A stretch of DNA of 64,000 nt from an uncultured Alphaproteobacteria bacterium. Lineage in GTDB: Bacteria > Pseudomonadota > Alphaproteobacteria > RF32 > CAG-239. The DNA lies in the NCBI GenBank assembly GCA_944392185.1, contig CALXVW010000051.1, positions 610 to 64,609 on the forward strand, written 5' to 3'. The translations under genes and the position numbers were made by a program. Position 1 is the first letter of the stretch. Every line of letters begins with the position of its first letter. The notes beneath the pieces were generated by a model that was given only the letters and a program-made list of their open reading frames with translations, searched no databases and was not told the origin of the DNA. This document shows, one piece after another, positions 3,301 through 60,090 of this stretch.

Positions 3301-4308
3301 TTGTTGTGATTTATCATTAGATAGAGTAACGGCACTTTCAACTTGAGATAAAGATAAAACCGAGCTTTTTTCAGATTGTGTCATGCCTACTTGGGCAAAG
3401 CTCAAAAGTTCTGAATGGTGTATGGCCGCCTGTGCATAAACTTTACTCAATGGAAAGGCAAAAGCTTGTGTTTCCGTGCTTTGCTCTGATCCACCTTCTG
3501 CACCTGTGGCTTCTTCTGCCGCCGCAGCTTGTGCCGCTGCTTCTTCTGCTGCTCCAGATGTATCGGCTGTTTGATCTTTTACTCCTTCGACATAAGCCAA
3601 TGGTTTAGTTTGATAAATAACTTTTGCTGCAATAAATTGCGCTTTTAAGGCTGTTACCTTAAGCAAGGTCTGATATAAATTATCTACCGTCTTGAATGCC
3701 AAACCTTCCATAAATATAGCATCATTATTACCTTCCGGCGTGTTATCATTACCACAATCTGTTCTCTCCCCTTTTATACAACCAATGTTTTTATCAATAG
3801 TGGGTTGAATGTTTTGTTCTAATTCTTCTTGAAGTGCACCGGCTGCCGTAAAAATTTCAATTACTGTATCTTTGTAAAACTCTTCTTTATAATTTTCATA
3901 CTGTTGCTGTTCCAGCGTATCATTGCTCGGATATTGCAAAAATAGTATTTTGATCAAATCATAAACATTATCGGCCGAATCATTTTTATACTGTTTGCCC
4001 AAATACATGCAGGTTTCCATCGGTTTTTGCCCAGGTTGTAAAGAATAATTATTAATCAATGTGCTCATTTCACCATTATAAACCGACTTTGCTGCCGCTC
4101 GTAGATTGTTAATATTATCTTGGGTGGTTTTAATGTCTTTTTGTGTCTTGTTTGCCAAATCTGCCGAACCTTGAATATATGAAGCGGCTTCATCAACAAA
4201 ATCCGGCATTGGGTATGAATCTATTGCCAAACCCCAAAATGCTTGTGCCTTCCTACTTATCAGAAGAAGTGCCACACTCAAAAATATATATACATATTTT
4301 CTCATCAT
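361..4308 (-). CDS. 1315-aa secreted protein (signal peptide, acidic, largely alpha-helical/coiled-coil, no TM helices); T4SS-associated, function unknown
   Basis: The N-terminus MMRKYVYIFLSVALLLISRKAQA is a signal peptide. The long ORF is Glu/Lys/Ala/Ser-rich and contains low-complexity AAQAAAAEEATGAEGG. It is the last gene before the virB8-like gene in the minus-strand T4SS operon. Confidence 0.6.
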   Translation of the reverse strand: MMRKYVYIFLSVALLLISRKAQAFWGLAIDSYPMPDFVDEAASYIQGSADLANKTQKDIKTTQDNINNLRAAAKSVYNGEMSTLINNYSLQPGQKPMETCMYLGKQYKNDSADNVYDLIKILFLQYPSNDTLEQQQYENYKEEFYKDTVIEIFTAAGALQEELEQNIQPTIDKNIGCIKGERTDCGNDNTPEGNNDAIFMEGLAFKTVDNLYQTLLKVTALKAQFIAAKVIYQTKPLAYVEGVKDQTADTSGAAEEAAAQAAAAEEATGAEGGSEQSTETQAFAFPLSKVYAQAAIHHSELLSFAQVGMTQSEKSSVLSLSQVESAVTLSNDKSQQYVDGALTFVVPDASPEKHAYIYEEDKMAELDKLEPIDEEVNKARDVHNLIHGLSDYKNAAESVQEMREKYEKALISLKKADSCAKSYIGRHFSNASSVWGGGANVTDYDSRSGISGWAYKAYEAAKAAETTETSSSDIIAMDIDYENVDLSDPTDTKKNMAEIEDQGSLSPGKSKEEKAVAEARASRMLSWQIGSEASKMLAADSAKWGKELKTPAFSVWQDVKSFYNQYLDKKYANIKSYLTSFTKNDVLAVVAERLKGGEASIDNTLRRKEAVALEEQLSTEIQEADSKGEQTLSGYEEDYQSGLAALQAQRKALVSRLDNASAELKTESDVLSDLRNQAREDAGATMREKVTAKEDFPSSLEASPSGNTSIAAVEDYEELSASFSSNVSENKASSGIEEQEKKVERQKQVVSSLDKQLEELDNKIKSYRLKAQSGILGLRLSREETKSSLIKQAAEMLSKSDGDYAKDVKSNLLSILQDYPLNQEVGLIVTPETVYQGLENSAQRALDTLYSQVEERVNQARKQISALGDNLYNPEYHEQIDQIHQSMIKDIKAMAISVNAIGISAIRGIELYGKLLTADTSAEEEDYFVGRPAKARDLKAPKEIFIENLPPLREVFHFDETDFQNVKPFVEGNTKTSTILNSDFLNVGGEIPKVWQYMLRSHSYVEADMDLKKALNEGCAQVSFFRGGAMPCKVKNSAIIVDMDGEGNYIRSSATGDLPECSYIEARSGNIYHTRREVSIKLGNGEGENSKDCAYSELGTLFEANDEGNLLFRQPTYNAYYTLLDELNNSEDELSNDKKKKLAAYDRAPLAFNQIGEFLVYAENERNMKEQLEEAEKQYNELLEKLYATLREYGYEPSSSLDLAKESDYNLVRNKLNNIKNSAITEALSQIEEIDIVDNDVVTERIESLKNIISALQKDKEEMTIIGGVVEDQNNLDEEIKTSKVNEDVADKFINSLNKASDSINLPEAPYCATY

Positions 4309-8029: not shown

Positions 8030-9599
8030 AGTTATACAAACTTTGAACCATCAATTGAGAACTAAAAACCTTTAACAACCCGTTCATTTGCATATCTATG
8101 GCTTTGTTTAGCTCAACAATATTATCATATACTGCTTGAGCATCTAATTCTGGCGCAAATTCTACCGCATCAATAAAATTTTCTTCAAAACTGTCGGCAT
8201 CTTGTCTGGCCTTGTAAGCTTCTGCCATGCTCGCTGCCACATATTGTGCCAGTGCTTGATTGTAAACTTTTGGAGCATCACTTCCGGAAAATAATTGCGC
8301 ACTTTGCTTTTCTTTGTTTAATTTTAATAAACATTCATCCATTTTATTTTCTTCTAATGCATCACTTGAACTTAAACCACAATACATTGCCAGTGCCCGA
8401 GGAATAATGACCGTTCCGTTAGAATCCGTACCTCCATCCGGTAAGTTTAATAGCTCAACTTTAGCAAACATTAACGTTTCTGAGTGATGTAATGAAGATG
8501 TCGTAAAAGCTTTTCTTAGCTGAATATGCTCTGTCGGAACCGCAACCGATGGTTTCACTGTCTCTATTGGCGAAAGATCTTTTACCGCTTTTGTTTTTGC
8601 AGAATCTATTGTTGCTTTCTCTTGCTGTTTAATGCTTTTAGCCTCCATAATGGCCACTTCTGCTTCCGTTGCTTTTGATGCCGTTGTTTCGTCAACACTT
8701 ACTTGCTTATCTTGAATTTGTGATATTTTTGCCTTTAATGCATTTAGTTTCTGAGTTTCTTCTTCTGATAATGAATCCTTGCTTTCCAGTTGGTTGAAAG
8801 TATTTTGCTCTTCTTCTGTTAAGATTGATGATAATTCATTATTTGTCTTCTCTATTTTTGCATCCGTATCTGCTGCGTCCGTATCTGTGCCTGCTGCATC
8901 TGTGCCTGCCGCATCTGTGCCTGCCGCATCTGTGCCTGTATTATCTCCTTCAAACGGAATGCGGCTTGATGTTGGATCTGTTTCGGCAGCATTTTCCTTT
9001 GCTGTGTTCGTTTGGGCGTCTATTAAAACAGATTCATTTGTATCGGTAACAGCATCCGTCGTATCTGCTTCAACGTCTACCTCGGTGTCCGCTTTCTCTT
9101 CTTGTCCCTTATCTGTAGAAATTCCGGCTTTATCTTTAGCGGCATCTAGTTTACTATCCGCAACATCCTGAGCTGCAGAGGCTGTTTCTTTAGCCGTTTC
9201 AACTCCATCTTCTGCTTGCTCTTTTAGCTCTTTGGCCTTAGCAATGTTTTCATCTAATTGCTTTTTATATTGATCATACTCTTTTTTATACTCTTCTGCT
9301 TTCTTTTGATATTCTTGAACTTTTGCAATCTTTTCTTCCAATTTTTCTTTATTGGCTACTACATATTCTGAAACACTTTTTTTAGCCGTTCCTATGGCCG
9401 TACTGGTTTTTTGAACAGTTTGCATGGTGCCTACCACCGTCTTGCTTTCTTTAACTTCCGTAAACCATTGTTTAACTGTTTTTCCGGTACTTTGTGTATC
9501 CGTTACAACTGCTTGTGCCTGTACTTCTTCTGCACAAAAACCTATATACAGAAAGGCCAGAAAACCTCTCAGAAGTTTTTTCCAAAAACCTTTTTCCAT
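7980..9599 (-). CDS. 539-aa secreted acidic coiled-coil protein with TDAAG tandem repeat; helical C-terminus loosely VirB5/TraC-like
   Basis: Signal peptide MEKGFWKKLLRGFLAFLYIGFCAEEVQAQA. Contains in-frame 15-bp DNA repeats encoding (TDAAG)n. Shares two motifs with neighbouring paralogs. Sits immediately downstream of virB4. Confidence 0.55.
   Translation of the reverse strand: MEKGFWKKLLRGFLAFLYIGFCAEEVQAQAVVTDTQSTGKTVKQWFTEVKESKTVVGTMQTVQKTSTAIGTAKKSVSEYVVANKEKLEEKIAKVQEYQKKAEEYKKEYDQYKKQLDENIAKAKELKEQAEDGVETAKETASAAQDVADSKLDAAKDKAGISTDKGQEEKADTEVDVEADTTDAVTDTNESVLIDAQTNTAKENAAETDPTSSRIPFEGDNTGTDAAGTDAAGTDAAGTDTDAADTDAKIEKTNNELSSILTEEEQNTFNQLESKDSLSEEETQKLNALKAKISQIQDKQVSVDETTASKATEAEVAIMEAKSIKQQEKATIDSAKTKAVKDLSPIETVKPSVAVPTEHIQLRKAFTTSSLHHSETLMFAKVELLNLPDGGTDSNGTVIIPRALAMYCGLSSSDALEENKMDECLLKLNKEKQSAQLFSGSDAPKVYNQALAQYVAASMAEAYKARQDADSFEENFIDAVEFAPELDAQAVYDNIVELNKAIDMQMNGLLKVFSSQLMVQSLYNYGSYSFVPAESGDEDE
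8866..8940. repeat. 15-bp coding tandem repeat (about 5 copies, GCATCTGTGCCTGCC unit) inside the 539-aa gene
   Basis: Directly visible: gcatctgtgcctgcc twice in perfect form, plus degenerate copies on each side. Encodes TDAAG repeats. Candidate slipped-strand variable region. Confidence 0.7.
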
Positions 9600-38639: not shown

Positions 38640-38730
38640 GGATAGGTGGCCGAGTGGTCGAAGGCGCACGATTGGAAATCGTGTGTACCCCTAAAGGGTA
38701 CCGAGGGTTCGAATCCCTCCCTATCCGCCA
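38640..38730 (+). tRNA. tRNA-Ser (anticodon GGA), CCA encoded
   Basis: Manual fold: acceptor GGATAGG/CCTATCC, D-arm, anticodon stem CACGA/TCGTG with loop TTGGAAA, long variable arm GTACCC-CTAAA-GGGTAC, T-arm GAGGG-TTCGAAT-CCCTC, discriminator G, CCA. Confidence 0.9.
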
Positions 38731-38767: not shown

Positions 38768-39784
38768 TTGCATCCTGCGGAATTGCGGGCTTTGCTGGCT
38801 GTTGACTTTGATAAATTGACTATGGTAAGCTCATTTAAAATCAAAAAACGCAAAATTTCCGGCAGTTACATACATTGCCGATTTTTGCAGAGTCAATGTG
38901 TTGGAGATATTATGGTTGATAAGATTGACGGTATAGATGTATTAAAAAATTTTTTGGAACAAAGATATTCTCAATATTCATTCAAAGATCTAGAAAAACA
39001 AGATGATCCAAGTATCCAAACTTGTATCAAAGAGGCAATTGATATTTTAGGAATTTGGTTACCTGTAGAGTTATATAAGTATTTGCCTATTATTTCCCCT
39101 TTTGTTAAACGGGATAATAGTTGTCGTCCTTTAAAGAAAAATCAAATAGATATGTGGGGATCACCTGATGAAGAAGGATATTTTCGTGATGACAATAGTA
39201 TTGTAAAAGGGTATCCTAGAAGTTTATTAATTAATAGTACCTTTCCATCATATGCAGGTAAAAAGATTGGAAAAGGTTTTGTGACAGCTCATTGTTGGAT
39301 GTGTAAAAACAATAATTATAATCCTATGGTGAATAGTTTTGTTCCTAATTTAGTGTGGCTTCCTAAGCCACTAGCTGTTCTTACAGATGTAGAAGGTAGT
39401 TTTGCTCAGCAGTATGTACAGTTTTTATCATATAATATATATGTAAAAGTACATGTAAATAGAGTGTTATCAAAAACAATTAAGGAATGTTGGAGTTTAT
39501 TACCGAAGCCATATTTGTCTCTTCCTAGGAAGAAAGTTGTTGTTAACTTTTTTAAATATAAGCCAAGAATGCAAAAAAGTAGAATTTCAATAATAAAAAA
39601 TGTTCAAAAAGCACTTGAACTGTGCATAGCAGGAGAAAAACTTTCTAAAAAAGTTATCAGTAAAAGATACACTGATGGGTTACCTAATGTTTCTAAAGAG
39701 CATCTAATTCGCTTGAATATAGAGCTTAAAAATTACTTAAAGACTGTTGAAGAAGCTTCTTCTCTTGCTCCTGAAAAAGCGTAG
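38768..39784 (+). CDS. Hypothetical protein, first gene of tRNA-Ser-adjacent island
   Basis: 338-aa ORF (the true start may be the internal MVDKIDG). Cys/His-containing segment HCWMCKNNNY. No family recognised. Confidence 0.3.
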   Translation: MHPAELRALLAVDFDKLTMVSSFKIKKRKISGSYIHCRFLQSQCVGDIMVDKIDGIDVLKNFLEQRYSQYSFKDLEKQDDPSIQTCIKEAIDILGIWLPVELYKYLPIISPFVKRDNSCRPLKKNQIDMWGSPDEEGYFRDDNSIVKGYPRSLLINSTFPSYAGKKIGKGFVTAHCWMCKNNNYNPMVNSFVPNLVWLPKPLAVLTDVEGSFAQQYVQFLSYNIYVKVHVNRVLSKTIKECWSLLPKPYLSLPRKKVVVNFFKYKPRMQKSRISIIKNVQKALELCIAGEKLSKKVISKRYTDGLPNVSKEHLIRLNIELKNYLKTVEEASSLAPEKA

Positions 39785-41375
39785 CACTAGAAGCTATTTC
39801 AAATAGTGTTTGCAGGTTAATGTTTAAGGTTCCATCGAGAAGTTGATTAACTATTCTTGGTGAGAGGTAGGCAAGATTTAGGTATTTGTAGATGGTTCGT
39901 TTCGACATTTTTTCTTGTTTGGCTATGTCATCGGTACTTAGTCCCTTTTCGTAGAGCTTCTTAAATTTCCAAGCATAAGCCAATGCACGGACAATGAGTC
40001 GATTGTTATCATTGATACTCATCAGTCCAACCTTTCCGGCGTTATAGACATTGCTTGATAGTCCGCGGTTGATGATGACCTGTTTTTCATAGATGATTTG
40101 GTTGTTGGTATTATCGGCTATAAAGTCTAATGGATTGTTATTTTCGTTTAACGCATTGCCTGTATAAGCTGATAGAATTAAAGGATCGGTGTTAAAAAAG
40201 AATGTTAAGTGATCTTTTTGATAAATTATTTTGTTAACAAAGTTACGGATAAAGTTACGCTGTTTCAGATAGTCAATATCTGCAAAATTTATTAATTTCA
40301 AAGCAAGTGAACTGTCTTTGTTTAGTCCATTGAGGTTGCTGTCAAGAATTTCGTTTATTGCATCTTTTGTAAGTTTATCAATTTGCTCTGTTGGCAGGAA
40401 TAAACCTTTTATTGCGTAATAATGGCGTTTTGTACTTTTCTTTTTGCTGTTTGCTTGGTTGCTAAAGGCGGTTCCTTCTGTGTTAAACAGCTTTCCGGTA
40501 AGTAAATTATTATTTGGCACATGATTGGGATTTTTGCATTTATCATTTTCTTTCAGCTTATTTTGTACCTGCTCCCATAATTCTTTGGAGATAATTGCTT
40601 GATGGTGTCCTTTGAAAGTTTGCCCTGTTTTCTTGTTTTCAATTAAACCTAAATATATTTTTTCATGCAATAACCTATGTAATGCCGATGTTTTTAATGG
40701 TTTTCCGCCTTTCTCAACACCTTTATTAGTCATCCAATGTTTATGGGTAATTCCTTTGGTTTGGACAAAGGTTTCAAGTTCTACCAAAGATTCACATTTT
40801 AAATAGCTTTCAAAAATATCTTTTACCTGTTCAGCTTCTATTGAATTTATAACCAGTTTTTTATCTATAATATCATAACCTAGTTTAGGAATCCCTCCAG
40901 TCCATAGGCCTTTGGCTTTACTGGCACGGATTTTATCACGGACACGTTCCGAAGACACCTCTCTCTCAAATTGAGCAAATGATAGCAGCATGTTTAGCGT
41001 TAGCTTGCCCATGGAAGTCGATGTGTCAAAGGCTTGGGTAATTGAAACAAAGCTGCAGCCATATTTATCGAATTCTTTCATCATATTATGGAAATCCATA
41101 ATTGAGCGGGACAAACGGTCGACTTTATAAACCACCACTGTCTGTATTAATCCATGTCGAATATCTTCAAGCATTTGTTTTAAGGCCGGACGTTCCATGG
41201 TGCCACCGGAAATGCCGCCGTCGGTATAAGTTTTGAAATATTCCCAGTTGTTAAAGGCTTGTGATAATATATAGCTTCGGCATGCTTCTTCTTGATTATG
41301 CAATGAATTAAACTCAAGCTCCAATCCTTTTTCGGTAGATTTACGAACATAGACGGCACAATTTATTCTAGTCAT
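39726..41375 (-). CDS. Large serine recombinase (integrase)
   Basis: N-terminal resolvase catalytic domain AVYVRKSTEKG (catalytic Ser) ...VVYKVDRLSRS. About 550 aa with a large C-terminal domain. Adjacent to the DUF2924 gene, as in many prophages and ICEs. Confidence 0.8.
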   Translation of the reverse strand: MTRINCAVYVRKSTEKGLELEFNSLHNQEEACRSYILSQAFNNWEYFKTYTDGGISGGTMERPALKQMLEDIRHGLIQTVVVYKVDRLSRSIMDFHNMMKEFDKYGCSFVSITQAFDTSTSMGKLTLNMLLSFAQFEREVSSERVRDKIRASKAKGLWTGGIPKLGYDIIDKKLVINSIEAEQVKDIFESYLKCESLVELETFVQTKGITHKHWMTNKGVEKGGKPLKTSALHRLLHEKIYLGLIENKKTGQTFKGHHQAIISKELWEQVQNKLKENDKCKNPNHVPNNNLLTGKLFNTEGTAFSNQANSKKKSTKRHYYAIKGLFLPTEQIDKLTKDAINEILDSNLNGLNKDSSLALKLINFADIDYLKQRNFIRNFVNKIIYQKDHLTFFFNTDPLILSAYTGNALNENNNPLDFIADNTNNQIIYEKQVIINRGLSSNVYNAGKVGLMSINDNNRLIVRALAYAWKFKKLYEKGLSTDDIAKQEKMSKRTIYKYLNLAYLSPRIVNQLLDGTLNINLQTLFEIASSATLFQEQEKKLLQQSLSNF

Positions 41376-48795: not shown

Positions 48796-49737
48796 TTATT
48801 TTTTGGGTTTTATAACCTTAACCTCATCGTCCCAAGTATAAAGAAACCAATCCATTTCCAATTTTCCGCCGGCTCGGAATTTAACTGTCAGACTGCCATC
48901 AGGATTTTCGATAAAAGTTTGGTTGGGGTGGAAGATAAAGGTTTTGGCTTCTTCTGCCACTTTCGGACTAAAGAGCCATTCCACGTCAAAAGGCTTTTCA
49001 TGCCAAGCCCCAAAAGATTCTTGGGCATACGCCTCCAAATTAAAATCATCGTTAGTAAAAGTTTCCGGCAAAATGTCGGCTTCTAAAATATGCGATAAAG
49101 AAAAATTGTGTGCTTTCCCGGAATCCCAGCCGTCGCTATGCTTAGCAACTAAATAATGTGCCCTCTGTCCATATAAAAAACCGTACGGAATCAGGTTATA
49201 GTCAAAAATTCTGCCGTCCATTTTGCTTTTATATTTTAATCTGACCTGATGGCAGCTTAAAATTGCCTGCCGAATGGTATCTATAATTTGGGCATCTATT
49301 TTTATTTTTGGACCGGGACGCAAAACCAGCCCTTCCGCTTTTATTAACTCCTCCGCATCAACCTCGACCCTGCGTTTTTGTTCCGGCTTCATCAAGTTTT
49401 TCAGCTTAAGCTCAACCTTTGCCAATAAAGCGGCTTTATTGTCCAAACTATTTTGCTTAAGGTAACTTATTGCCGTTTGCAGGGCTGAAATTTCTTCCGG
49501 AGAAAACGCAATTAAGGAATTTAAAGTCCGTTGAGGAATTCGCCAGCGTTTTCTTTTTTCTCCAGTATAGACTTCTTCCATTTGTGGAAAATAGCGAAGC
49601 AAAGCGTCTCGCATTCTTTCTGCGGTACGTTGCGAAACATCAAAATCGTGACAAATATCGGCAAGAGAAATCCCGTCTGAACTTTCCTGCATTTTCATTG
49701 CCAAGTCAAACAGGTCTAACATCTTGCCGTAATTCAT
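48796..49737 (-). CDS. WYL-domain transcriptional regulator (HTH + WYL, BrxR/YafY-like)
   Basis: N-terminal HTH (GISLADICHDFDVSQRTAERMRDAL). Central WYL-type domain and C-terminal extension (WYL-like motif VAKHSDGWDS). 313 aa. Confidence 0.55.
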   Translation of the reverse strand: MNYGKMLDLFDLAMKMQESSDGISLADICHDFDVSQRTAERMRDALLRYFPQMEEVYTGEKRKRWRIPQRTLNSLIAFSPEEISALQTAISYLKQNSLDNKAALLAKVELKLKNLMKPEQKRRVEVDAEELIKAEGLVLRPGPKIKIDAQIIDTIRQAILSCHQVRLKYKSKMDGRIFDYNLIPYGFLYGQRAHYLVAKHSDGWDSGKAHNFSLSHILEADILPETFTNDDFNLEAYAQESFGAWHEKPFDVEWLFSPKVAEEAKTFIFHPNQTFIENPDGSLTVKFRAGGKLEMDWFLYTWDDEVKVIKPKK

Positions 49738-50919: not shown

Positions 50920-52221
50920 TTAAGCTACTTTATCTAAGGTTTTTACATCCAAAATGTTATCCTCAATAATAGCGTCTTTGATGTCGTAGTTTTTATCAAG
51001 CATAGCAATTAAACAGCGACCGATGTGATAACTTAAATTAACTGGTACTGCATTACCGATTTGTTTGTATTGAGCCCCCATAGATCCTTTAAATTCCCAA
51101 GTATCTGGAAAAGATTGAATCCTTGCATATTCTCTAATAGTCAATGGCCGAGTTTCTTCTGGGTGACATCGTTCTGTTTGTTTTTGTGCCGGTGCACAGG
51201 TTAGAGTTAGGCTGGGTTCATCCCAGGAAAGACGTCTTGCCATACCTGTTTTTCCTCCAGAAAGGTAAAAACTTCCTTTCATATATTCTTTTTGTAACCC
51301 TATCGGAAGATCTCGCCAGTATCCTCCCTCTGGAACCTGTGAGAGAATCTCAGCTTTTCTTTTAGGGTAGCTTTGTCCTTCAGATTTTGGGCAATTTTTT
51401 AATGCTGATCTTAAAGAAACGGTATAATTTTTTTCTTTGGGAAAAATGAAAGGTATATCTAAGTCTTTTCTAATTCCAATTATAATTAATCGCTCTCTTT
51501 TTTGAGGGACATCCAAATATTGTGCTCTAAGTACTTTATATCTTACATTATAACCAAGTTCCGTTAAAGTATTTACCATAGTTTGAAGCGTTCTGCCGTT
51601 ATCGTGTTTTAATAATCCTTTGACGTTCTCACCAACAGCAATTTTGGGCATGGTTTCTTTAACACAACGAGCAAATTCAAAAAATAAGGTTCCTCTTGTA
51701 TCTTCGAATCCCATACTTTTTCCAGCATAGCTGAAAGCTTGACATGGAAAACCGGCCTGAACGATGTCGACCTTATTTTTCCAAGATGTAAAATCTACAT
51801 TATGGACATCAGCATGAATGATGTTTGTACCTTTAGGGAAATTATGTTTTAATGTTTCTATGCAGTTTTTATCAAATTCATTTAACAATACATGGTGAAT
51901 ACCAGCATTTTCAAAGCCTAAAGCTGTTCCTCCGGCTCCAGCAAATAATTCTATTGCAGTATAAGGGGATGGTGTTTTGTTTTTTAATACTTTAAATTCT
52001 GCTTCAGATTTGTCGTTTAATTTTTTTAGAAGTGCTTTTACTTCATCTTCATCAAAAATTCTATGGTTTTTATCCGATCTTTCTGCTTTTATAAGACCTT
52101 TTTTTTCCCATCGTCTGATTGTATCAATTGAAAGATTAAGTTTTTGGCTAACTTCATGGATAGATAACTGCATTGTAACACTCCTTGATTCAATAAAAGA
52201 ACCATAAAATAACCCTTGCAT
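50920..52221 (-). CDS. DNA (cytosine-5)-methyltransferase with N-terminal MerR-like HTH
   Basis: C5-MTase motifs I (ELFAGAGG), IV (GFPCQAFSYAGK) and VI (ENVKGLL). N-terminal LSIHEVSQKLNLSIDTIRRWEKKGLI (MerR-type HTH). Confidence 0.8.
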   Translation of the reverse strand: MQGLFYGSFIESRSVTMQLSIHEVSQKLNLSIDTIRRWEKKGLIKAERSDKNHRIFDEDEVKALLKKLNDKSEAEFKVLKNKTPSPYTAIELFAGAGGTALGFENAGIHHVLLNEFDKNCIETLKHNFPKGTNIIHADVHNVDFTSWKNKVDIVQAGFPCQAFSYAGKSMGFEDTRGTLFFEFARCVKETMPKIAVGENVKGLLKHDNGRTLQTMVNTLTELGYNVRYKVLRAQYLDVPQKRERLIIIGIRKDLDIPFIFPKEKNYTVSLRSALKNCPKSEGQSYPKRKAEILSQVPEGGYWRDLPIGLQKEYMKGSFYLSGGKTGMARRLSWDEPSLTLTCAPAQKQTERCHPEETRPLTIREYARIQSFPDTWEFKGSMGAQYKQIGNAVPVNLSYHIGRCLIAMLDKNYDIKDAIIEDNILDVKTLDKVA

Positions 52222-52266
52222 ATATGCAAGGGTTATTAGAATAGCTGTAGATAAGTTAAAATATCG

Positions 52267-52980
52267 TTATTGATTATATTTTTCTTCTATTTCTGTAGAT
52301 AGCTGCCTAATTACATTATTTAATAATTCGGTTCCATCGACCTCTGTTGCAAGAGACGCAATTTCATTTATTAATTCATCATAAAAGCTGGGATCCCCGG
52401 TTAAATGGTGCCAAAAATCTTTGCCGACATATACTGGATGCGAACGATCAATTGTCCGATACATTTGTGATAAATCATCACTTTTTCCATAAAAAACACC
52501 AACAATACAATCAATATCAGCATTAAATTCGCGTAAACCATTGGTGCGGGCTATACGACGAATAGATTCAAAATGATTTTTAATGGTTGTAATATCATCT
52601 TTATTAATGGTATTTGGGCCAGCTTTTATTTGGCAATATTTACGTCGGCCATCAAGTTGATCGACAAATTCAATGTCTATTCCAGGAGTTGTGGATGCAA
52701 AACCGCTAAGTACATCTTTACAGAAGGCTTGCATTTGTGTACCGAACGTAGTGTTTATTGAAGTACCTAAAACCCTAGGATATACTAAAGCCTTTGCTAT
52801 GCTAGAAGCGTCACAATTACCAAAAGCAAAGTTTGCTAGATATTTTTCTAAAAAAGGATTCGGTTGAAAAGCCGATAATTTACCTAATTTTTCTGTATTC
52901 CTTTTATGATTATCAACAATTTTCTCTCTAAAAAAATCCTTTGCTTTTGCTAGTATTTCTCTTTTTTCTGCCTCAGTCAT
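52267..52980 (-). CDS. Candidate Type II restriction endonuclease paired with the C5-MTase
   Basis: Immediately upstream of and co-directional with the MTase. IDIEFVD...KYCQIK gives a degenerate PD-(D/E)xK-like arrangement. Assignment by context. Confidence 0.35.
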   Translation of the reverse strand: MTEAEKREILAKAKDFFREKIVDNHKRNTEKLGKLSAFQPNPFLEKYLANFAFGNCDASSIAKALVYPRVLGTSINTTFGTQMQAFCKDVLSGFASTTPGIDIEFVDQLDGRRKYCQIKAGPNTINKDDITTIKNHFESIRRIARTNGLREFNADIDCIVGVFYGKSDDLSQMYRTIDRSHPVYVGKDFWHHLTGDPSFYDELINEIASLATEVDGTELLNNVIRQLSTEIEEKYNQ

Positions 52981-53132
52981 AGCTATTTCCTATGTTGTTT
53001 TTACTAATATATTGAAATTATACTGGCGATTATTGAAAACACAATCATTAAATTAGTTAAAAGAAAAATTCTTGACTCCATAGCAAGCATGCAATATAAA
53101 AAATATCAGCAAGCATAAAAAGAGGTATAAAT

Positions 53133-54137
53133 ATGAATGTAAATCAAATTAAAGGTGGTAAGGTTAGAGCAAAAAAATTATCATCAGAACAACGTAGAGA
53201 GATAGCAATAAAAGCGGCACAATCAAGATGGCAAAAAAGTGCTACTAATGAAAGCAATTTTCCTAAGGCTCTATATACTGGAGTGCTTCCTATTGGCGAT
53301 GTAGAAATAGATTGTGCTGTATTAGATGATGGTCGGAGAGTTTTAACCGCAACATCTATATTTAATGCTTTTGATCGAACTAGAAAAGGTATGAATTCAA
53401 GGCTCGAAATTGAAGGAACAAAAATACCTCCATTTTTGGCCGCAAAAAACTTAGAAAAATATATAACTTCAGAAGTTATTGAGAAGGCCACCCCAATCAC
53501 ATATATTGATGGGTCTATAGAAAAAACAGGTTATTTGGCCAGTATATTACCTAAAATGTGTGAAGTTTATCTCAATGCACGTAGAGACAACCAATTAACA
53601 GCTTCACAAAAGAAACTTGCAGAGAAATCTGAAATTCTATTAATGGCTTTTGCTCAAGTTGGTATAGATGCATTAATTGACGAAGCAACAGGTTACCAAT
53701 ATGACAGAAAACACGATGCATTAAGGATATTGTTAGCAAAATATATTGAAGAAGGTTTACAAAAATGGATTAAAACATTTCCGGATGCTTTTTTTGCTGA
53801 ACTAGATCGTCTTTATAATAACGGAATCACTATTTCTCGTAAAAGGCCGATGTATTATGGAAACTTTATAAATAAATATGTGTATGAGCCAATAGAACAC
53901 GGATATATAAAAGAAGAACTTAATAAGAAGAATATAAAAAAAGATGGAAAAAGAATTGCTCAGTTTCATAGGTGGTTAACTGAAGAGGGAAGAAATATCC
54001 TTATTTTACAGATTGGTAGGGTTTCAGCTCTTATGGAGATTAGTAAAAATATAGAGGCATTTAAAAGAAAAGTTGAAAAACAAAAGGAAATCTCTGTAGC
54101 TCCGTATCTATTTGAAGAGATGAATGAAATTGAATAA
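53133..54137 (+). CDS. P63C-domain protein (phage-type) immediately upstream of Gabija
   Basis: N-terminal GGKVRAKKLSSEQRREIAIKAAQSRWQK and central IDEATGYQYDRKHDALRILLAKYI...WIKTFPDAFF match the P63C-domain pattern. Stops 31 bp before gajA. Confidence 0.45.
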   Translation: MNVNQIKGGKVRAKKLSSEQRREIAIKAAQSRWQKSATNESNFPKALYTGVLPIGDVEIDCAVLDDGRRVLTATSIFNAFDRTRKGMNSRLEIEGTKIPPFLAAKNLEKYITSEVIEKATPITYIDGSIEKTGYLASILPKMCEVYLNARRDNQLTASQKKLAEKSEILLMAFAQVGIDALIDEATGYQYDRKHDALRILLAKYIEEGLQKWIKTFPDAFFAELDRLYNNGITISRKRPMYYGNFINKYVYEPIEHGYIKEELNKKNIKKDGKRIAQFHRWLTEEGRNILILQIGRVSALMEISKNIEAFKRKVEKQKEISVAPYLFEEMNEIE

Positions 54138-54167
54138 GTTTCATTCTCTATTACTAGGAGTTAATTT

Positions 54168-55868
54168 ATGAAAATATCAAAATTGACTATTGAAAATTTT
54201 AGAAATTTGTCAGGAATATCAACGATTTTCTCTGATGAAATTTGTTCAATTGTTGGTGAAAACAATATTGGAAAATCAAATTTATTATATGCTATTACAT
54301 CTGTATTAACGGGTAAGAAATTTGATGAAATAGATTTTTATGATAAAAGTAAGCCACTGGTTATTTCTTTTACATTAAAACTCTCGGATGAAGAATTAGG
54401 TGCTTTTGATGATTATTTTGATCCAGACGACCATCATTTAGTTAATATTATCGCAGAGCAAGCAACTCCTGATGATTATATTAACTATAGACACAAAGAA
54501 AGTGGAAACTCTATTTCACGAGCAGATATAATTAATAATTTAAATGTGATTGTATATGATTCTTTAAGAAATCCTAAAACAGAAATAACTTTTGAAAAGA
54601 GTAAAGGTGTAGGAGCATTTTTAAATTATATTATAAGAAGGTATTTATCTCAAAATGCTTCTAAATTATATCTTGTAGAAGAAAATATAAACTCATTAAA
54701 TGATTATATTATAGGGATTCTTGAAAAACTTACGTGTTTTAATAAGTTTAATATAAAATCAGATGTATCTAATAATGCAGATGAATTATTACCCAAAATT
54801 TTTGATCTATACGAAGCAGGGAACATTCCTTTAGAGTGCTCAGGATATGGAGTACAGTTTAATATACTTATTTTATTATCTATTTTAGAAAAAATTTTAA
54901 GATATTCTGAAAAAAAAGGATTGCCTGATAATAAAACATTTTCCTGTATTATTACTTTTGATGAACCTGAGATACATCTAAGTCCTTTTTTACAAAGAAG
55001 CATATTGTACAATATCAAAAAGATTGCAAAAGGAGAAGATGATGATTTTAATGCAATTATAAAAGAACTATTTGATATTGATCATTTTTCTGCTCAAATA
55101 TTGCTGACAACCCATTCCAGAGAAATTGTCGAAAATAACTATAAACAAATCATTCGTTTATATAAAGATGAATCCAAAGTAAAAGCTGTATGTGGTGCCG
55201 ATATTTCAATAACATCGGAAGAAAAACATTGGTATAAAGCACTAACCTACGTTAAAGAGGCTTTGTTTGCAAAAAAAGTTATATTAGTGGAAGGTGATAG
55301 TGAACAGGGCGCCTTGTATAGCTTTGCAAAAACATTAAAAATCAATTTGGATGATTATGGTGTTGCTATCGTAAAGGCATCTGGCGCTAATAGTATTTTT
55401 CCATTAGCTTATTTGTTTGAGAAATTTAATATACAACCTATACTTATTTTTGATAAAGATAAATATGATGAATATCAAAGAGGTAATAAAGATCAAGATA
55501 TTACACATTTTAAAGATTATATGTTTGTTACGCAAACTAAATGTTTTGATAGTGAAATAGTTTTTAATTTATATAATGATGACGGAATTGAAGTTCTAAA
55601 GGTTATTCAGAATGATTATAGGTGTAATATAATTCAAAGAAGTTCTGTTGCTAAACTTAATAAGCAGTACGCACTAAATCCTCCATTAGAAGAACAAGAT
55701 TACCAATTCGCTTCATACCAATATCCAGATGAAATTTTAAAATATATGTATGTTTCATTTTTTCAAAATAATAAAACTGTTGTATTTGGAGAGTGTATTG
55801 GCGAGCGTTGTCCCGAAGTGTGTATTCCAGAATGTTACAAAAACGCTATTCTTAAGGCAGTCGAATAA
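54168..55868 (+). CDS. gajA: Gabija GajA (OLD-family ATPase + Toprim nuclease)
   Basis: N-terminal ISKLTIENFRNLSGIS...IVGENNIGKSNLLYAI (AAA_15/OLD ABC-type ATPase). C-terminal Toprim VILVEGDSEQ. 566 aa, overlapping the start of a UvrD-like gene. Confidence 0.75.
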   Translation: MKISKLTIENFRNLSGISTIFSDEICSIVGENNIGKSNLLYAITSVLTGKKFDEIDFYDKSKPLVISFTLKLSDEELGAFDDYFDPDDHHLVNIIAEQATPDDYINYRHKESGNSISRADIINNLNVIVYDSLRNPKTEITFEKSKGVGAFLNYIIRRYLSQNASKLYLVEENINSLNDYIIGILEKLTCFNKFNIKSDVSNNADELLPKIFDLYEAGNIPLECSGYGVQFNILILLSILEKILRYSEKKGLPDNKTFSCIITFDEPEIHLSPFLQRSILYNIKKIAKGEDDDFNAIIKELFDIDHFSAQILLTTHSREIVENNYKQIIRLYKDESKVKAVCGADISITSEEKHWYKALTYVKEALFAKKVILVEGDSEQGALYSFAKTLKINLDDYGVAIVKASGANSIFPLAYLFEKFNIQPILIFDKDKYDEYQRGNKDQDITHFKDYMFVTQTKCFDSEIVFNLYNDDGIEVLKVIQNDYRCNIIQRSSVAKLNKQYALNPPLEEQDYQFASYQYPDEILKYMYVSFFQNNKTVVFGECIGERCPEVCIPECYKNAILKAVE

Positions 55869-57661
55869 TGTCTTGTATTGAAGATAAGTTAAAAGAAATG
55901 CATCAAAATGATAGGGAGCAACTTGATATCATATTTTCTCAAGAAAAACGAATCCTTGTTGAAGCATCAGCAGGGTGCGGTAAAACAAAGACATTAGTTA
56001 GTAAAATAGCTTATTTGCTTAGTACAAATAAGATTCCTGTAAATAAAAAAATTTTGATATTAACATTTGGTGTAAATGCTGCTTACAAAATAAAAAAAGA
56101 AGTTTTTGAAAATGTACCTAAGTTAATAAGAAATATTCACGATTTAGAAGATAAAATCATAGTTACTAATTTTCATGGCTTTTCGCGTAGAATTCTAAGT
56201 CGATATGGGTATTTATTAAATGATAATCTTTTGCAATTAAACCAATTTTCTATAGATGATGATGCAGAAACCGATGAATTAACACAGTTAGACATAGGGC
56301 TACTTATGTCAGAAGCTGATTTTTTAAGTACTTATTCTCAATGTATCAAAGATAATAATTATGGTTACTTGAATGAAAATTTTGAGAAGTATATTGCTTT
56401 AATAAAGTATAAGTTTCTGCCAAATAATCATATTACATATAATGCCATATTATTACTTACATTGAAACTTTTAAGTCAATATAGTGGAATATTACAGTTT
56501 TATCAAAAACTATTTCCTTATATAATAATTGATGAATTTCAAGATACTGGTAGTATTAGCTGGGCAATACTTAGACAACTGATAACAGAAAAAACTTCTC
56601 TTCTGTTTATGGGAGATCCTTTACAAAGAATTTATGGTTTTATAGGTGCTGTTCCAGGTTTAATGGAAAAAGCATGTGCAAAATATTCTATGAATATATT
56701 TAAAATAACAACAAATTATCGGTTTAAAGATAATCCGAATATGCTGCAATTAGATAAAAACATTAGAGAAAATAGTAAAGGCAATTCTATAATTATCACT
56801 CAAAATGCGGTTGTTCCTTGTAATTTGTATTATACACAGCACGATGAGGCAGTCTATATAAAATCAAAATTAATTTATTTATTAAATCATTATCAAGGAT
56901 GCAAAATAGCAATTTTAATTCAATCCCGAACAAAAAATTTAAATTATATCTTGGATTATTTAGCTAGTAACTCAATTGATTATTTTAATGGATTATTCAA
57001 CGAAGAAAGTTATTCTTATAAAAAATTTCATAAAGATGTATTGGAAATATTTATAGATAGTTATAACAAAAGTAAATTAAAAACTATTCGCAAATCTTTT
57101 TTATCTCAAATTTACGAAAAAGTTTCTGCTTTTTATGATGCTCACATGACAGATGAAATATCATCTTTAATAAAATTGTTAAAAGTGTTTTTTTCTGATA
57201 TCACAAATAAGATTTATCTTAATAATGAAGAAAAATATCAGCTAATAATTGATGTATTATCAAATAATTCCTTAAAACAATCTATGGAACTATTGGAAGA
57301 AAAAATTGTAGTTACAACGGTGCATGGTGCAAAAGGATTGGAATGGGATTATATTTTACTTCCTGATATGGAGCGAAATAGTTTTCCTAATTGGCAATCT
57401 TTATGTAGTGTATGTCCGGAAATAGCAAACCATGATGATTGTAATAGATGTTTAAACAAAAGTAGCAATATGGATCAAAAGTTTTATTGTCGCTACATTG
57501 ATATTCTTAGCCTTTTTTATGTGGCGGTTACAAGAGCTAGAAAACAAGTATTTTTTTCTGCTAGTTTACAAACGTTGAATAATCTAAAATATCCAAGAAC
57601 AAAAATTAGCTGTTTATTATCTCTTCCTGGTATTGACTTAAAAGAAGATAAAGAAATCTGA
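55868..57661 (+). CDS. gajB: Gabija GajB (UvrD-like helicase)
   Basis: Motif I ASAGCGKTKT, motif II IIDEFQDTG, motif V-like VTTVHGAKGLEWDYILL. The start overlaps the gajA stop (taATG). Confidence 0.75.
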   Translation: MSCIEDKLKEMHQNDREQLDIIFSQEKRILVEASAGCGKTKTLVSKIAYLLSTNKIPVNKKILILTFGVNAAYKIKKEVFENVPKLIRNIHDLEDKIIVTNFHGFSRRILSRYGYLLNDNLLQLNQFSIDDDAETDELTQLDIGLLMSEADFLSTYSQCIKDNNYGYLNENFEKYIALIKYKFLPNNHITYNAILLLTLKLLSQYSGILQFYQKLFPYIIIDEFQDTGSISWAILRQLITEKTSLLFMGDPLQRIYGFIGAVPGLMEKACAKYSMNIFKITTNYRFKDNPNMLQLDKNIRENSKGNSIIITQNAVVPCNLYYTQHDEAVYIKSKLIYLLNHYQGCKIAILIQSRTKNLNYILDYLASNSIDYFNGLFNEESYSYKKFHKDVLEIFIDSYNKSKLKTIRKSFLSQIYEKVSAFYDAHMTDEISSLIKLLKVFFSDITNKIYLNNEEKYQLIIDVLSNNSLKQSMELLEEKIVVTTVHGAKGLEWDYILLPDMERNSFPNWQSLCSVCPEIANHDDCNRCLNKSSNMDQKFYCRYIDILSLFYVAVTRARKQVFFSASLQTLNNLKYPRTKISCLLSLPGIDLKEDKEI

Positions 57662-57687: not shown

Positions 57688-59448
57688 TTATTCAAAAGCT
57701 TTTAATAGCCTTTGTGTAAGGATTTTTTTGCGTTCTTCAATAAATTTGCGAAAGTCTTTAATATCGACAAATTTAGAAGGGATTAGCTGTTCTTTACAAT
57801 TTATATTGTTTTTTTCTATCCATTCTTCTAAAGATTTTTTATTTTTTGCTTCGTTGTCATTGCCATAAAGTAATTGGAGATTTAGAATGCTATTCCAGTT
57901 GTTTTTATCCTGATAGAATTTGAGGTCATCCTCTGACAGATTTAGTTTCTTAAGTTCTTTTTTGCTAAAGCAATATTCGGGGTGAAGGTGATCTTTGTGC
58001 TTTGTTGCTCTATAATCTGAACCATCATATAGTAAAGATAAAATTGGAAAGGCATATCTAGATTCCTTTTGTTCAAACAATAAGCTCTCTATAAATTCAT
58101 TATCAACTTTTAATGATTTTCTTTTTCCTTCTAGATTCTCTTTTATTTCTTCTAGAGGAAAGTTACGAGATTTAGATCTTTGTATTACATCACGAATCTC
58201 TTTTAAAATTGAATCAGATTGGCCTCCAAATATCTTTTTAAGAAATACAATATTTAGCCATTTTAAAATAATAAGTCTATCTTGTTTATACGCCACCTTA
58301 TCACAAAATTGTTTGGTTTTTCCAGAGTGATTTAAATAATAAACAATTAAGGCAATTGCATTGTATGATGTAATTGTATTATCATTATGGCCGTAATTTT
58401 TTAATAATGTAAAAGCTTCTTTAATTGTAGCCTTTAACCCTCCTTCAGAATCCCATTCTTTTTCAAATTGAAATAAACATTCAGAAGATAAATTATTAAC
58501 TTTAAATTTTATATCTTTACTATAAGCGAGGAGAGCGCATCGAACAATGAATTCTTTCGAAAAATTATAAAATCCCATGTTTTTTATTTCTTTTTCTAAA
58601 TTATTAAATTCTGTTCTTGCATCAACGGAAGTCCAAGTTGAAATAATTGTAGATATTAGCAGATCTGAAAAAGATAATTTTTCTCCTCCGCTATTTGTTC
58701 TTATAAAGATTTTTAGTGCTTTATCATAATCTTCTGTTTCTTCAAGATAATAGTTGATTAAAGGTTTGTTATAAATAATGTCATATAACTTTGCTATGGT
58801 ATCATGAGCAAATTTGTTGTTGGGAAACTGTTCTTCTAATGTTTTTATAAGGCGTGATACATCTTTGTATTTTTCTGTTAAAATGTCTCCTACTTTAAAG
58901 AAACGTGAGGAGCCACCTAAGTTATTAAACTCTTGTTCTGTTAAAAAGTAGAAGCCATATTCTCTTTCATCATCATATTCAGCAATATTTTTATGTTCTT
59001 CTTCTGTATATTCTTTATATTTTTTACAGATATCTAAATATAATTTTCGTTCTGGATAGTTATCTAAATTATCCCAGTGGCCGTAGGGCCTTTTATATGC
59101 ATAAGATCCTTTTAGCCCAAGATATAACGCTGTTAGTCTTTGTTGCCCATCCAGTACAGCACAAAAGTCATTTACTCCATTTGTATTAAAAGAATCAGCA
59201 GTTTCGTGGTAATATTCAATATATTTAGTTAGAAATTGGTAATATTTATACTGATTTTTATTCTCAGCATTATCTACCTTCCAGAAAAGGAATGAGTTTA
59301 TTGGAAAATTACACATTAGAGAATCAAATAATAATTCTATATCATCCGTACTCCATACAAATTCTCTTTGGATTGCAGGTAGTAATAGTTCTCTCTTATC
59401 TATTCTTTCTAGGGCTTTTTTAATTGTTAAAGGCGTTTGAAAACTCAT
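57688..59448 (-). CDS. GmrSD-family type IV restriction endonuclease (DUF262 + DUF1524)
   Basis: N-terminal DUF262 hallmark LDGQQRLTAL and QREFVW. C-terminal His-Me finger-like HKDHLHPEY. Confidence 0.7.
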   Translation of the reverse strand: MSFQTPLTIKKALERIDKRELLLPAIQREFVWSTDDIELLFDSLMCNFPINSFLFWKVDNAENKNQYKYYQFLTKYIEYYHETADSFNTNGVNDFCAVLDGQQRLTALYLGLKGSYAYKRPYGHWDNLDNYPERKLYLDICKKYKEYTEEEHKNIAEYDDEREYGFYFLTEQEFNNLGGSSRFFKVGDILTEKYKDVSRLIKTLEEQFPNNKFAHDTIAKLYDIIYNKPLINYYLEETEDYDKALKIFIRTNSGGEKLSFSDLLISTIISTWTSVDARTEFNNLEKEIKNMGFYNFSKEFIVRCALLAYSKDIKFKVNNLSSECLFQFEKEWDSEGGLKATIKEAFTLLKNYGHNDNTITSYNAIALIVYYLNHSGKTKQFCDKVAYKQDRLIILKWLNIVFLKKIFGGQSDSILKEIRDVIQRSKSRNFPLEEIKENLEGKRKSLKVDNEFIESLLFEQKESRYAFPILSLLYDGSDYRATKHKDHLHPEYCFSKKELKKLNLSEDDLKFYQDKNNWNSILNLQLLYGNDNEAKNKKSLEEWIEKNNINCKEQLIPSKFVDIKDFRKFIEERKKILTQRLLKAFE

Positions 59449-59711
59449 TTTTGTTTCCTAATTTTTTAGATAATTAATAATATATATTGTTACTATTGTA
59501 GTTTGCAAAAAGCAATCACTAATTGTAAATTTTCCCTGTATTTAATTTTAAATTCCCTGATAATTTTGGGAAGGATGTTGGGATAAGCTAAGCAATTCAA
59601 GGTAAACATGATGGTGCGGAGGAGAAAAACGTGGTGAAATTCCCTGTAGATTCCCTGTTATTTGGCTTGAGCAATGTGAAGCTTTAGTATGCTTAATACC
59701 GTTGAGATTTA

Positions 59712-60090
59712 CTACTCCGCCATTTACAAGAAAGCCCTGCCTTGTGCAGGGTTTTGTTGTAAATACTGAGAGATTGGAGGGATTTGAACCCTCGGAGAAG
59801 AGGGGGCGACTACCAGCGAAAGGCAAGCGGAAGCGTGCCGGTGAGCCTTGGCGAATGAGCGCCCGTGCAACTCAAGCGTCAGCGCAGAGTAATCCCTCCC
59901 TATCCGCCATTTACAAGAAAGCCCTGCCTTGTGCAGGGTTTTGTTGTAAATACAAAAGGATTGGTGGGATTTGAACCCTCGGAGAAGAGGGTTCGACTAC
60001 CAGCGAAAGGCGAGCGAGAGCGCGCCGGTGAGCCTTGGCGAATGAGCGCCCGTGCAACTCAAGCGTCAGCGCAGAGTAATCCCTCCCTAT
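59712..60090. repeat. Two tandem copies of a 187-bp unit, each ending in a copy of the tRNA-Ser 3' end (candidate attR sites). Each unit also contains a terminator-like hairpin and an inverted tRNA T-arm-like fragment
   Basis: ccgccatttacaagaaagccctgccttgtgcagggttttgttgtaaata recurs at 59717 and 59904. aatccctccctatccgcca (identical to the tRNA-Ser 3' end at 38712-38730) is at 59891-59909. aatccctccctat is at 60078-60090. ggagggatttgaaccctc is the reverse complement of a T-arm. Confidence 0.75.

Follow-up and report, generated by a model that had tools for sequence, protein, structure and literature searches.

A P63C-family gene and a canonical Gabija pair at a defense cargo slot of an uncultured alphaproteobacterium

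Does a P63C-family gene located directly upstream of a Gabija defense operon belong to that system as a third component, or is it merely a neighbor? The question is raised by a 64,000-nucleotide stretch of DNA from an uncultured alphaproteobacterium (hereafter, the window), in which a P63C gene, gajA, and gajB follow one another on the same strand between positions 53133 and 57661. The original prediction made for this DNA had proposed a possible three-gene variant of Gabija, with the P63C protein acting as an accessory or sensor component. We compared the window with loci encoding homologues of P63C or GajA (labeled L001, L081, etc.) and found that, very probably, no three-gene system is present: P63C is a gene of the backbone, and the canonical two-gene Gabija system behind it occupies a slot in which cargo is exchanged.

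Gabija genes and their genomic neighbors

GajA and GajB of the window form a canonical two-gene Gabija pair, as had been proposed. GajA matches the PADLOC model PDLC00085 over its full length (E-value 3e-158, profile positions 1-575 of 580) as well as the Pfam families AAA_15 and OLD-like Toprim (OLD-like_TOPRIM), and GajB matches PDLC00107 to the same extent (E-value 1e-193, positions 5-585 of 587) together with UvrD-helicase and UvrD_C. The motifs of both proteins are intact, namely, Walker A (G30ENNIGKS) and the Toprim residues E375 and D429xD in GajA, and motif I (AGCGKT) and motif II (DEFQ) in GajB. The UvrD-like gene lies directly downstream of the gene encoding the ATPase and Toprim domains, the gajB start and the gajA stop overlapping by one base (TAATG), and no third gene is conserved, since the upstream gene varies across all six GajA relatives examined. 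The pair matches the definition of Gabija (PMC10568477) and should act on phage DNA as described for that system, the OLD-type ATPase/Toprim nuclease forming a complex with its UvrD-like partner.

The gene order is that of known Gabija systems such as the one from Bacillus cereus VD045, in which an OLD ABC-ATPase and Toprim gene is followed by a UvrD/PcrA/Rep-like gene. However, the GajAB proteins of the window represent a divergent sequence subtype, and phmmer searches of the Protein Data Bank (PDB) did not reach the solved B. cereus proteins (hits up to an E-value of 1 for GajA and 0.001 for GajB). The window copy further differs in having no visible promoter of its own, in its position 30 nt behind an unrelated gene, and in a GajB of 597 residues. 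The P63C gene itself has the length and strand that had been reported, although the spacer separating it from gajA measures 30 nt instead of 31 bp.

If P63C were a component of Gabija, it should accompany gajA elsewhere. Yet, no P63C gene was found upstream of gajA at any of six loci encoding GajA relatives (73, 63, 63, 48, 43, and 42% identity). At the 73% relative and one of the 63% relatives, gajA is preceded by hsdR of a type I restriction-modification operon, with a 12-nt gap or an overlap. The other 63% relative has a WYL regulator and a 133-aa open reading frame (ORF) upstream, the 48% relative a C5 methylase module with Vsr as its last gene, and the 43% and 42% relatives resolvase or serine recombinase genes.

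Two observations on this Gabija clade can be added. In L088-L091 and L095, gajA stands directly behind a restriction-modification operon (12 nt from hsdR or overlapping it, or 2 nt from Vsr), which suggests that Gabija of this clade is routinely transcribed at the end of a restriction-modification mRNA. In addition, the WYL regulator encoded in the island around the window genes (48796-49737) is 45% identical to that of L092 (4467-5402), and in L092 and L093 the WYL regulator gene is divergently oriented upstream of a 63%-identical GajAB; WYL-type control may thus be common in the clade.

The same result was obtained from the P63C side. In a survey limited to one genome per species, which yielded 80 loci with P63C homologues, tblastn detected GajA and GajB at only one, L001, which comes from the window's own lineage (an uncultured alphaproteobacterial metagenome-assembled genome with 97.8% nucleotide identity across the island). 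Among the 150 immediate neighbors of P63C in the other 79 loci, there was no GajA or GajB, defense proteins occurred as single cases, and the sole recurrent partner was an IS1595-family transposase (12 loci). The P63C-gajA-gajB arrangement was found in the window, L001, L081, and L109 only, i.e., in a single lineage with gajA at least 97.8% identical, and in no independent one. Among the papers listed in a literature search, likewise, none contained both P63C and Gabija. The proposed conservation of the three-gene arrangement in other genomes was therefore not borne out (0 of 6 GajA relatives and 0 of 79 other P63C loci), and the observations named in advance as arguing against a three-gene system, the absence of P63C beside Gabija relatives and a promoter of its own, were both made.

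A slot for exchangeable cargo behind P63C

In close relatives of the window, the slot behind P63C swaps defense cargo between backbones that are 98-99% identical. The slot extends from 54150 to about 59523, with the 3′ end of the P63C gene as its left flank and a conserved right-end segment of about 200 bp as its right flank. In the window, it contains gajA, gajB, and a gene for a GmrSD-like HEC-05 protein, which is convergent with gajB, belongs to the same swapped block, and was seen only in loci carrying GajAB. In L102 and L104, where P63C is 99.4% identical to that of the window and the backbone shows 98.4-98.7% nucleotide identity, as well as in L106 and L107, where P63C is 94% identical, homology to the window stops at 54149, 12 nt beyond the P63C stop codon. 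These four loci have neither GajAB nor HEC-05; they carry SIR2-APAZ (PADLOC E-value 5e-174), a short prokaryotic Argonaute (pAgo; E-value 7e-162), and a DruH-like gene. SIR2-APAZ and short pAgo are also the cargo of L082-L087 (P63C 78-80% identical), and L108 (78%) carries, between the same flanks, M.C5 (a C5 methylase), a GHKL-ATPase protein, and Vsr. By blastn, L082 and L086 match the window again from 59524 on, and an alignment of five loci is conserved from 59505 onwards. The right-end segment contains four TTCCCTG motifs and terminates in CCGCCA, the 3′ end of tRNA-Ser. Three types of cargo are thus found between the 3′ end of P63C and the right-end segment, as in a hotspot where conserved flanks enclose different defense systems. 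The sister loci come from metagenome assemblies, several of which are labeled as human gut.

P2/P4 prophages and comparable integrative islands reportedly harbor defense hotspots of this kind, and the window resembles them in its conserved flanks around a slot that switches unrelated defense systems in near-identical elements. It differs in that its element lies at a tRNA-Ser and encodes a serine recombinase and a terminase with no capsid genes recognized, that the host is an uncultured low-GC alphaproteobacterium, and that a P63C-family gene borders the slot on the left.

Two features of the slot and its right flank deserve mention. The DruH-like gene, which encodes 1131 residues and follows SIR2-APAZ/pAgo in L104 (12656-16051) as well as in L102, L106, and L107 (PADLOC DruH, E-value 8e-79), stands alone, with no other Druantia genes nearby within the fetched part of the L104 locus. 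The four TTCCCTG copies, located in 59524-59660 (three of them as ATTCCCTG), do not vary among the five aligned loci and may be recognized by a protein that acts in recombination or regulation.

The 30-nt spacing between P63C and gajA is itself the product of a recent deletion. In L081, the spacer measures 280 nt and contains the final 60 codons of a type I hsdR gene (3487-3767), whose product is 83-87% identical to the HsdR directly preceding gajA in L088 and L089 (tblastn E-value 1e-32); the transition from the hsdR stop to the gajA start is intact. L104 has the same hsdR fossil (9005-9329), which there separates P63C from the cargo. In the window, L001, and L109, a loss of about 250 nt has reduced the fossil to its last few bases and stop codon (ATTACTAG, 54150-54157), and the spacer also contains the ribosome-binding site of gajA (AGGAG, 54156-54160). 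Because the hsdR stop/gajA start junction is preserved, GajAB most likely derives from an hsdMSR-gajAB locus. From there it would have entered the slot, bringing along about 190 bp of the hsdR 3′ end, and the window lineage would later have deleted the fossil, leaving gajA 30 nt past the P63C stop. We also considered whether the fossil had arrived only with GajAB and would be specific to its present carriers, and rejected this, since SIR2-APAZ carriers in 94-99% identical backbones keep the fossil up to its stop codon. This distribution suggests that GajAB, or its donor locus, was present first and was later replaced by SIR2-APAZ cargo.

Sequence divergence tells the same story of separate origins. 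Between the window and L081, P63C shows a synonymous divergence (dS) of 0.69 (ratio of nonsynonymous to synonymous divergence, dN/dS, 0.045) versus 0.015 for gajA, P63C is 94% identical versus 98.6% for gajA, and position 54149 separates a left part with 92.5% nucleotide identity from a right part with 98.0%. P63C, gajA, and gajB hence do not share one evolutionary history; the contrast between the two dS values argues for a recent transfer of the Gabija cassette between backbones of older divergence. Argonaute cargo, too, occurs in both types of backbone.

The P63C gene, its promoter, and transcription of gajAB

The P63C protein is a full-length match to phrog_2384 (E-value 1.6e-105, profile positions 7-336 of 338) and contains the Pfam domain PF10546 at residues 200-286 (E-value 5.5e-18; 65.8 bits against a cut-off of 26.1); no PADLOC or NCBIfam model matches it. 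An N-terminal basic two-helix motif (residues 8-34, approximately) is followed by a beta-rich domain (45-135) and then by a helical domain, within which the Pfam P63C region falls, and a structure model with a mean predicted local distance difference test score (pLDDT) of 75.7 has the same layout of two N-terminal helices, beta-rich domain, and helical domain. Pfam scans of the sub-regions at E-values up to 10 returned no further domain, and a profile search of PDB sequences returned ribosomal protein uL16 only, a chance-level match that was discarded. The core of about 295 residues is 60-70% identical across Erwinia, Snodgrassella, Alcaligenes, and Acidaminococcaceae, and dN/dS values of 0.035-0.096 against six homologues (about 0.05) indicate strong purifying selection. 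In those parts of the literature that our search covered, the term PF10546 was not used, and the phrase "P63C domain" occurred in only three papers, once in each and in one of them as a passing mention.

In a large branch of the family, P63C is encoded by the second ORF of insertion sequences of the IS1595 family, some of which reportedly carry an extra ORF. Such second ORFs are among the closest relatives of P63C outside the window's lineage and were found in elements of about 2 kb in L002, L003, L006-L009, L011, L012, L079, and L110 (e.g., L008 6897-8945). The transposase gene (PF12762 and PF12760) overlaps the P63C start by 8 nt, the two are translationally coupled, and in L008 and L079, 24-bp terminal inverted repeats (GGGG..TATATA.CTAACTAGCC) enclose both ORFs. 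The window P63C differs from these copies in having the N-terminal motif and operator-like repeats, both of which the insertion sequence copies lack, and in being without a transposase and without such inverted repeats; the gene upstream of it is a divergent restriction endonuclease gene. We rejected the possibility that it is an insertion sequence remnant with recognizable ends, as no IS1595-type inverted-repeat consensus was found in the window within 3 mismatches. Other copies reside in temperate phages (about 35-41% identity), where they occupy accessory (moron) positions, namely, the nin region of 933W, the nin region of SEN34 on the opposite strand, and a site beside the integrase and repressor genes of the Gordonia phage Petra. 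The window P63C shares the N-terminal basic motif and the core with these phage proteins (e.g., L0095 of 933W), although its core is closer (60-70%) to chromosomal and insertion sequence-borne copies. P63C is an autonomous mobile gene and, in this element, a fixed backbone gene, not a component of Gabija.

The P63C gene also has its own sigma-70-type promoter, conserved in L081, L082, L086, L102, and L108, which the promoter scan did not list because the scanner requires a T at position 6 of the -10 hexamer. Two direct GCAAGCAT repeats bracket the -10 hexamer as a candidate operator, and promoter and repeats are conserved across backbones in which the rest of the intergenic DNA has diverged. 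The motif recurs upstream of P63C genes in unrelated contexts (L099-L101 and the phages SEN34 and Petra) and just upstream of P63C genes in many phyla (L017-L078, L099-L101, L097, and L098), in either orientation and usually in 2-4 copies. When the 300 nt preceding the conserved core were scored in loci from distinct species, GCAAGCAT was present in one or more exact copies at 44 of 54 loci whose P63C has the N-terminal motif (scored as GGxARAxxLSxExRxxIAxxAAxxRW) and at none of 18 without it (insertion sequence second ORFs and short forms; Fisher p 3e-10), and it occurred in 2.5% of random 300-nt windows of the same loci. Within the island, it is found only at the P63C promoter. Because P63C is the only gene common to all loci bearing GCAAGCAT, we infer autorepression, in which the P63C protein would bind this motif at its own promoter and its N-terminal basic helices would probably make the contact. 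The possibility that GCAAGCAT is the operator of the MerR-fused methyltransferase encoded next to P63C was rejected, as P63C genes keep the motif even in loci that have no restriction-modification system. A practical side observation is that ORF calling produced false N-terminal extensions of P63C ("MLA..." or "CKH") in L024, L035, L049, L051, L052, L057, and L066, because ATGCTTGC and TGCAAGCAT in the operator region are translated as codons; the same artifact may often have led to wrongly annotated starts of P63C genes.

This promoter may also serve gajAB. Scans of the last 600 bp before gajA revealed no promoter-like or canonical terminator-like site. RNA folding identified an AU-rich 10-bp hairpin spanning the P63C stop codon, which has no U-tract, is not flagged by the terminator scan, and forms the end of the conserved backbone sequence, ahead of the cargo breakpoint at 54149/54150. 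The earlier claim that no terminator-like structure intervenes between P63C and gajA accordingly stands for canonical terminators and needs qualification for this hairpin, and the suggested co-transcription of the two genes remains plausible as a prediction. In L081, the fossil stretch deleted from the window carries the sole promoter-like site that the scan found between P63C and gajA. Because the spacer of the window is too short for a promoter, transcription of gajAB probably starts at the P63C promoter and continues through the P63C gene into gajA. P63C would repress this promoter via the GCAAGCAT repeats, and gajAB would then be read through from it. Such transcription coupling would be an accident of the deletion and not an evolved three-gene design.

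Host element, competing explanations, and significance

The genes discussed above (Table 1) lie in a low-GC island (26-33%) in the order WYL regulator, 221-aa gene, methyltransferase and endonuclease, P63C, GajA, GajB, and HEC-05. The restriction-modification operon is part of the conserved backbone and is kept together with P63C in L081-L087 and L102-L108. The island would be the right-hand part of an element of about 21 kb integrated at tRNA-Ser (window 38731-59723), as judged from the repeated 3′ end of the tRNA and a serine recombinase gene. The tRNA-Ser is located at 38640-38730, a 20-nt repeat of its 3′ end at 59891-59910, and CCGCCA at 59718-59723; the tRNA-linked tandem repeats leave the exact attachment site ambiguous. 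A large serine recombinase gene is present at 39726-41375, and the element also encodes DUF2924, a ParB-fused N6 methylase, DUF5681, a terminase large subunit, a DnaB-like helicase, and DUF3768. As no capsid or tail genes were recognized among its genes, the element may be satellite-like or defective. L086 contains a shorter version with Argonaute cargo.

Table 1. Positions of the features considered in the window
Feature	Position	Strand	Description and source
Type II restriction-modification operon	50920-52980	-	Divergent from P63C; conserved backbone
MerR-fused C5 methyltransferase	50920-52221	-	Profile searches
EcoO109I-like endonuclease	52267-52980	-	Profile searches
P63C promoter	53072-53100	+	TTGACT (53072-53077), 17-nt spacer, TATAAA (53095-53100); read from the sequence
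Two direct GCAAGCAT repeats, candidate operator	53083-53090 and 53109-53116	+	Bracket the -10 hexamer
P63C gene	53133-54137	+	334 aa; ORF listing and profile searches
AU-rich 10-bp hairpin	54122-54146	+	RNA fold; spans the P63C stop codon
P63C-gajA spacer	54138-54167	+	30 nt; alignments with L081, L104, and L089
gajA	54168-55868	+	566 aa; class 2 OLD nuclease, ABC ATPase and Toprim domain
gajB	55868-57661	+	597 aa; UvrD/PcrA/Rep-like superfamily 1 helicase-family protein
HEC-05/GmrSD-like gene	57688-59448	-	Candidate type IV restriction enzyme; PADLOC PDLC04151, E-value 1.5e-186; Pfam GmrSD_N
Conserved right end of the mobile element	59505-59723	+	Alignment of the window, L001, L081, L082, and L086; also L108

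Further features of the element were noted. The C5 methyltransferase carries an N-terminal MerR-type helix-turn-helix domain, which suggests that the methylase itself regulates the restriction-modification operon. At the right end, two tandem repeats of about 185 nt (94% identical, 59716-60090) each end in the last 13-19 nt of tRNA-Ser and each contain a terminator-like hairpin; the mobile element lies between tRNA-Ser and these repeats. They give a weak full-length match to RtT RNA (RF00391; 25 bits against a gathering score of 45, E-value 0.018) and resemble the tRNA-linked repeats downstream of tyrT in E. coli.

Several other explanations for the presence of P63C beside Gabija were weighed. 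P63C could be an independent single-gene defense or superinfection-exclusion gene that merely neighbors Gabija. Its position between a restriction-modification system and Gabija in a defense island, the accessory positions of its relatives in the temperate phages SEN34, Petra, and 933W, its strong conservation, and its tightly controlled promoter would all fit. We nevertheless consider this rather unlikely: no PADLOC model matches the protein, its neighbors at the 79 genome loci are mostly not defense genes, and the large subgroup coupled to the IS1595 transposase points to a role in mobile elements.

P63C could instead be a generic regulator or cargo-handling factor, which controls any cargo inserted downstream or favors recombination next to its own 3′ end. 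The slot always follows it with no further backbone gene in between, the breakpoint falls 12 nt after its stop codon, its promoter bears operator-like repeats, some relatives are coupled to a transposase, and the window cargo appears to depend on the P63C promoter. However, the SIR2-APAZ and restriction-modification cargos start 120-320 nt away, leaving room for promoters of their own, GCAAGCAT is confined to the P63C promoter within the island, and selection for an intact flanking gene would alone leave the breakpoint at the 3′ end. This explanation thus appears very unlikely as it stands.

It is less credible still, indeed highly improbable, that P63C belongs to the adjacent restriction-modification system, e.g., as its controller protein. 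The divergent arrangement of the two is conserved over backbones with 78-100% identical P63C, but L099-L101 (64-68%) and nearly all distant homologues have no such system nearby and yet keep GCAAGCAT, the methyltransferase has its own MerR-type DNA-binding domain, and a separate operon promoter can be read upstream of the repeats. Finally, a three-gene Gabija in which P63C works with GajAB as a DNA-binding or sensor subunit can be given hardly any credence: the shared strand, the short spacer with no canonical terminator, and the recurrence of the arrangement in four loci speak for it, but these loci form one lineage (gajA of L081 is 98.6% identical to that of the window), P63C is absent beside the six GajA relatives and GajAB beside the 79 other P63C loci, a 99.4%-identical P63C precedes SIR2-APAZ/pAgo instead, the spacing stems from a recent deletion, and the synonymous divergence of P63C and gajA is discordant.

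Our preferred reading, a backbone P63C followed by a two-gene Gabija in an exchange slot, also has points that weigh against it or its parts. As the hsdR fossil is present in SIR2-APAZ carriers too, the order of events in which GajAB came first and was then replaced is a parsimonious reading. The AU-rich hairpin at the P63C stop could end some transcripts, and a weak, sub-threshold promoter may lie inside the P63C 3′ end. The argument for P63C binding to GCAAGCAT is one of co-occurrence, the exact 8-mer is absent from 10 of the 54 loci with the N-terminal motif, and P63C has no PDB match by structure or by sequence. P63C may also have a generic role towards whatever cargo lies downstream.

Read as a backbone gene followed by exchangeable cargo, the locus cautions that tight spacing and a shared strand in a defense island do not make a system, as a 30-nt gap created by a recent deletion here joins genes with separate histories. 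It also provides, in an uncultured alphaproteobacterium, a cleanly delimited slot that exchanges Gabija and GmrSD, SIR2-APAZ/pAgo, and a restriction-modification module. Recognition of a large P63C branch as the second ORF of IS1595-type elements is a useful by-product, and the GCAAGCAT motif, which tracks the N-terminal basic motif, leads to a first testable hypothesis for the P63C family, that of sequence-specific autoregulation. A bolder extension, which we regard as quite doubtful, is that P63C proteins with the N-terminal motif repress themselves at GCAAGCAT and that the P63C promoter of the element is the control point for any defense cargo placed downstream; in a wider version, the family may serve insertion sequences, prophages, and islands across phyla as an accessory factor and also promote cargo capture at its 3′ flank. 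If true, the expression of Gabija would be set, and perhaps induced upon infection, by a so far uncharacterized regulator belonging to the mobile element.

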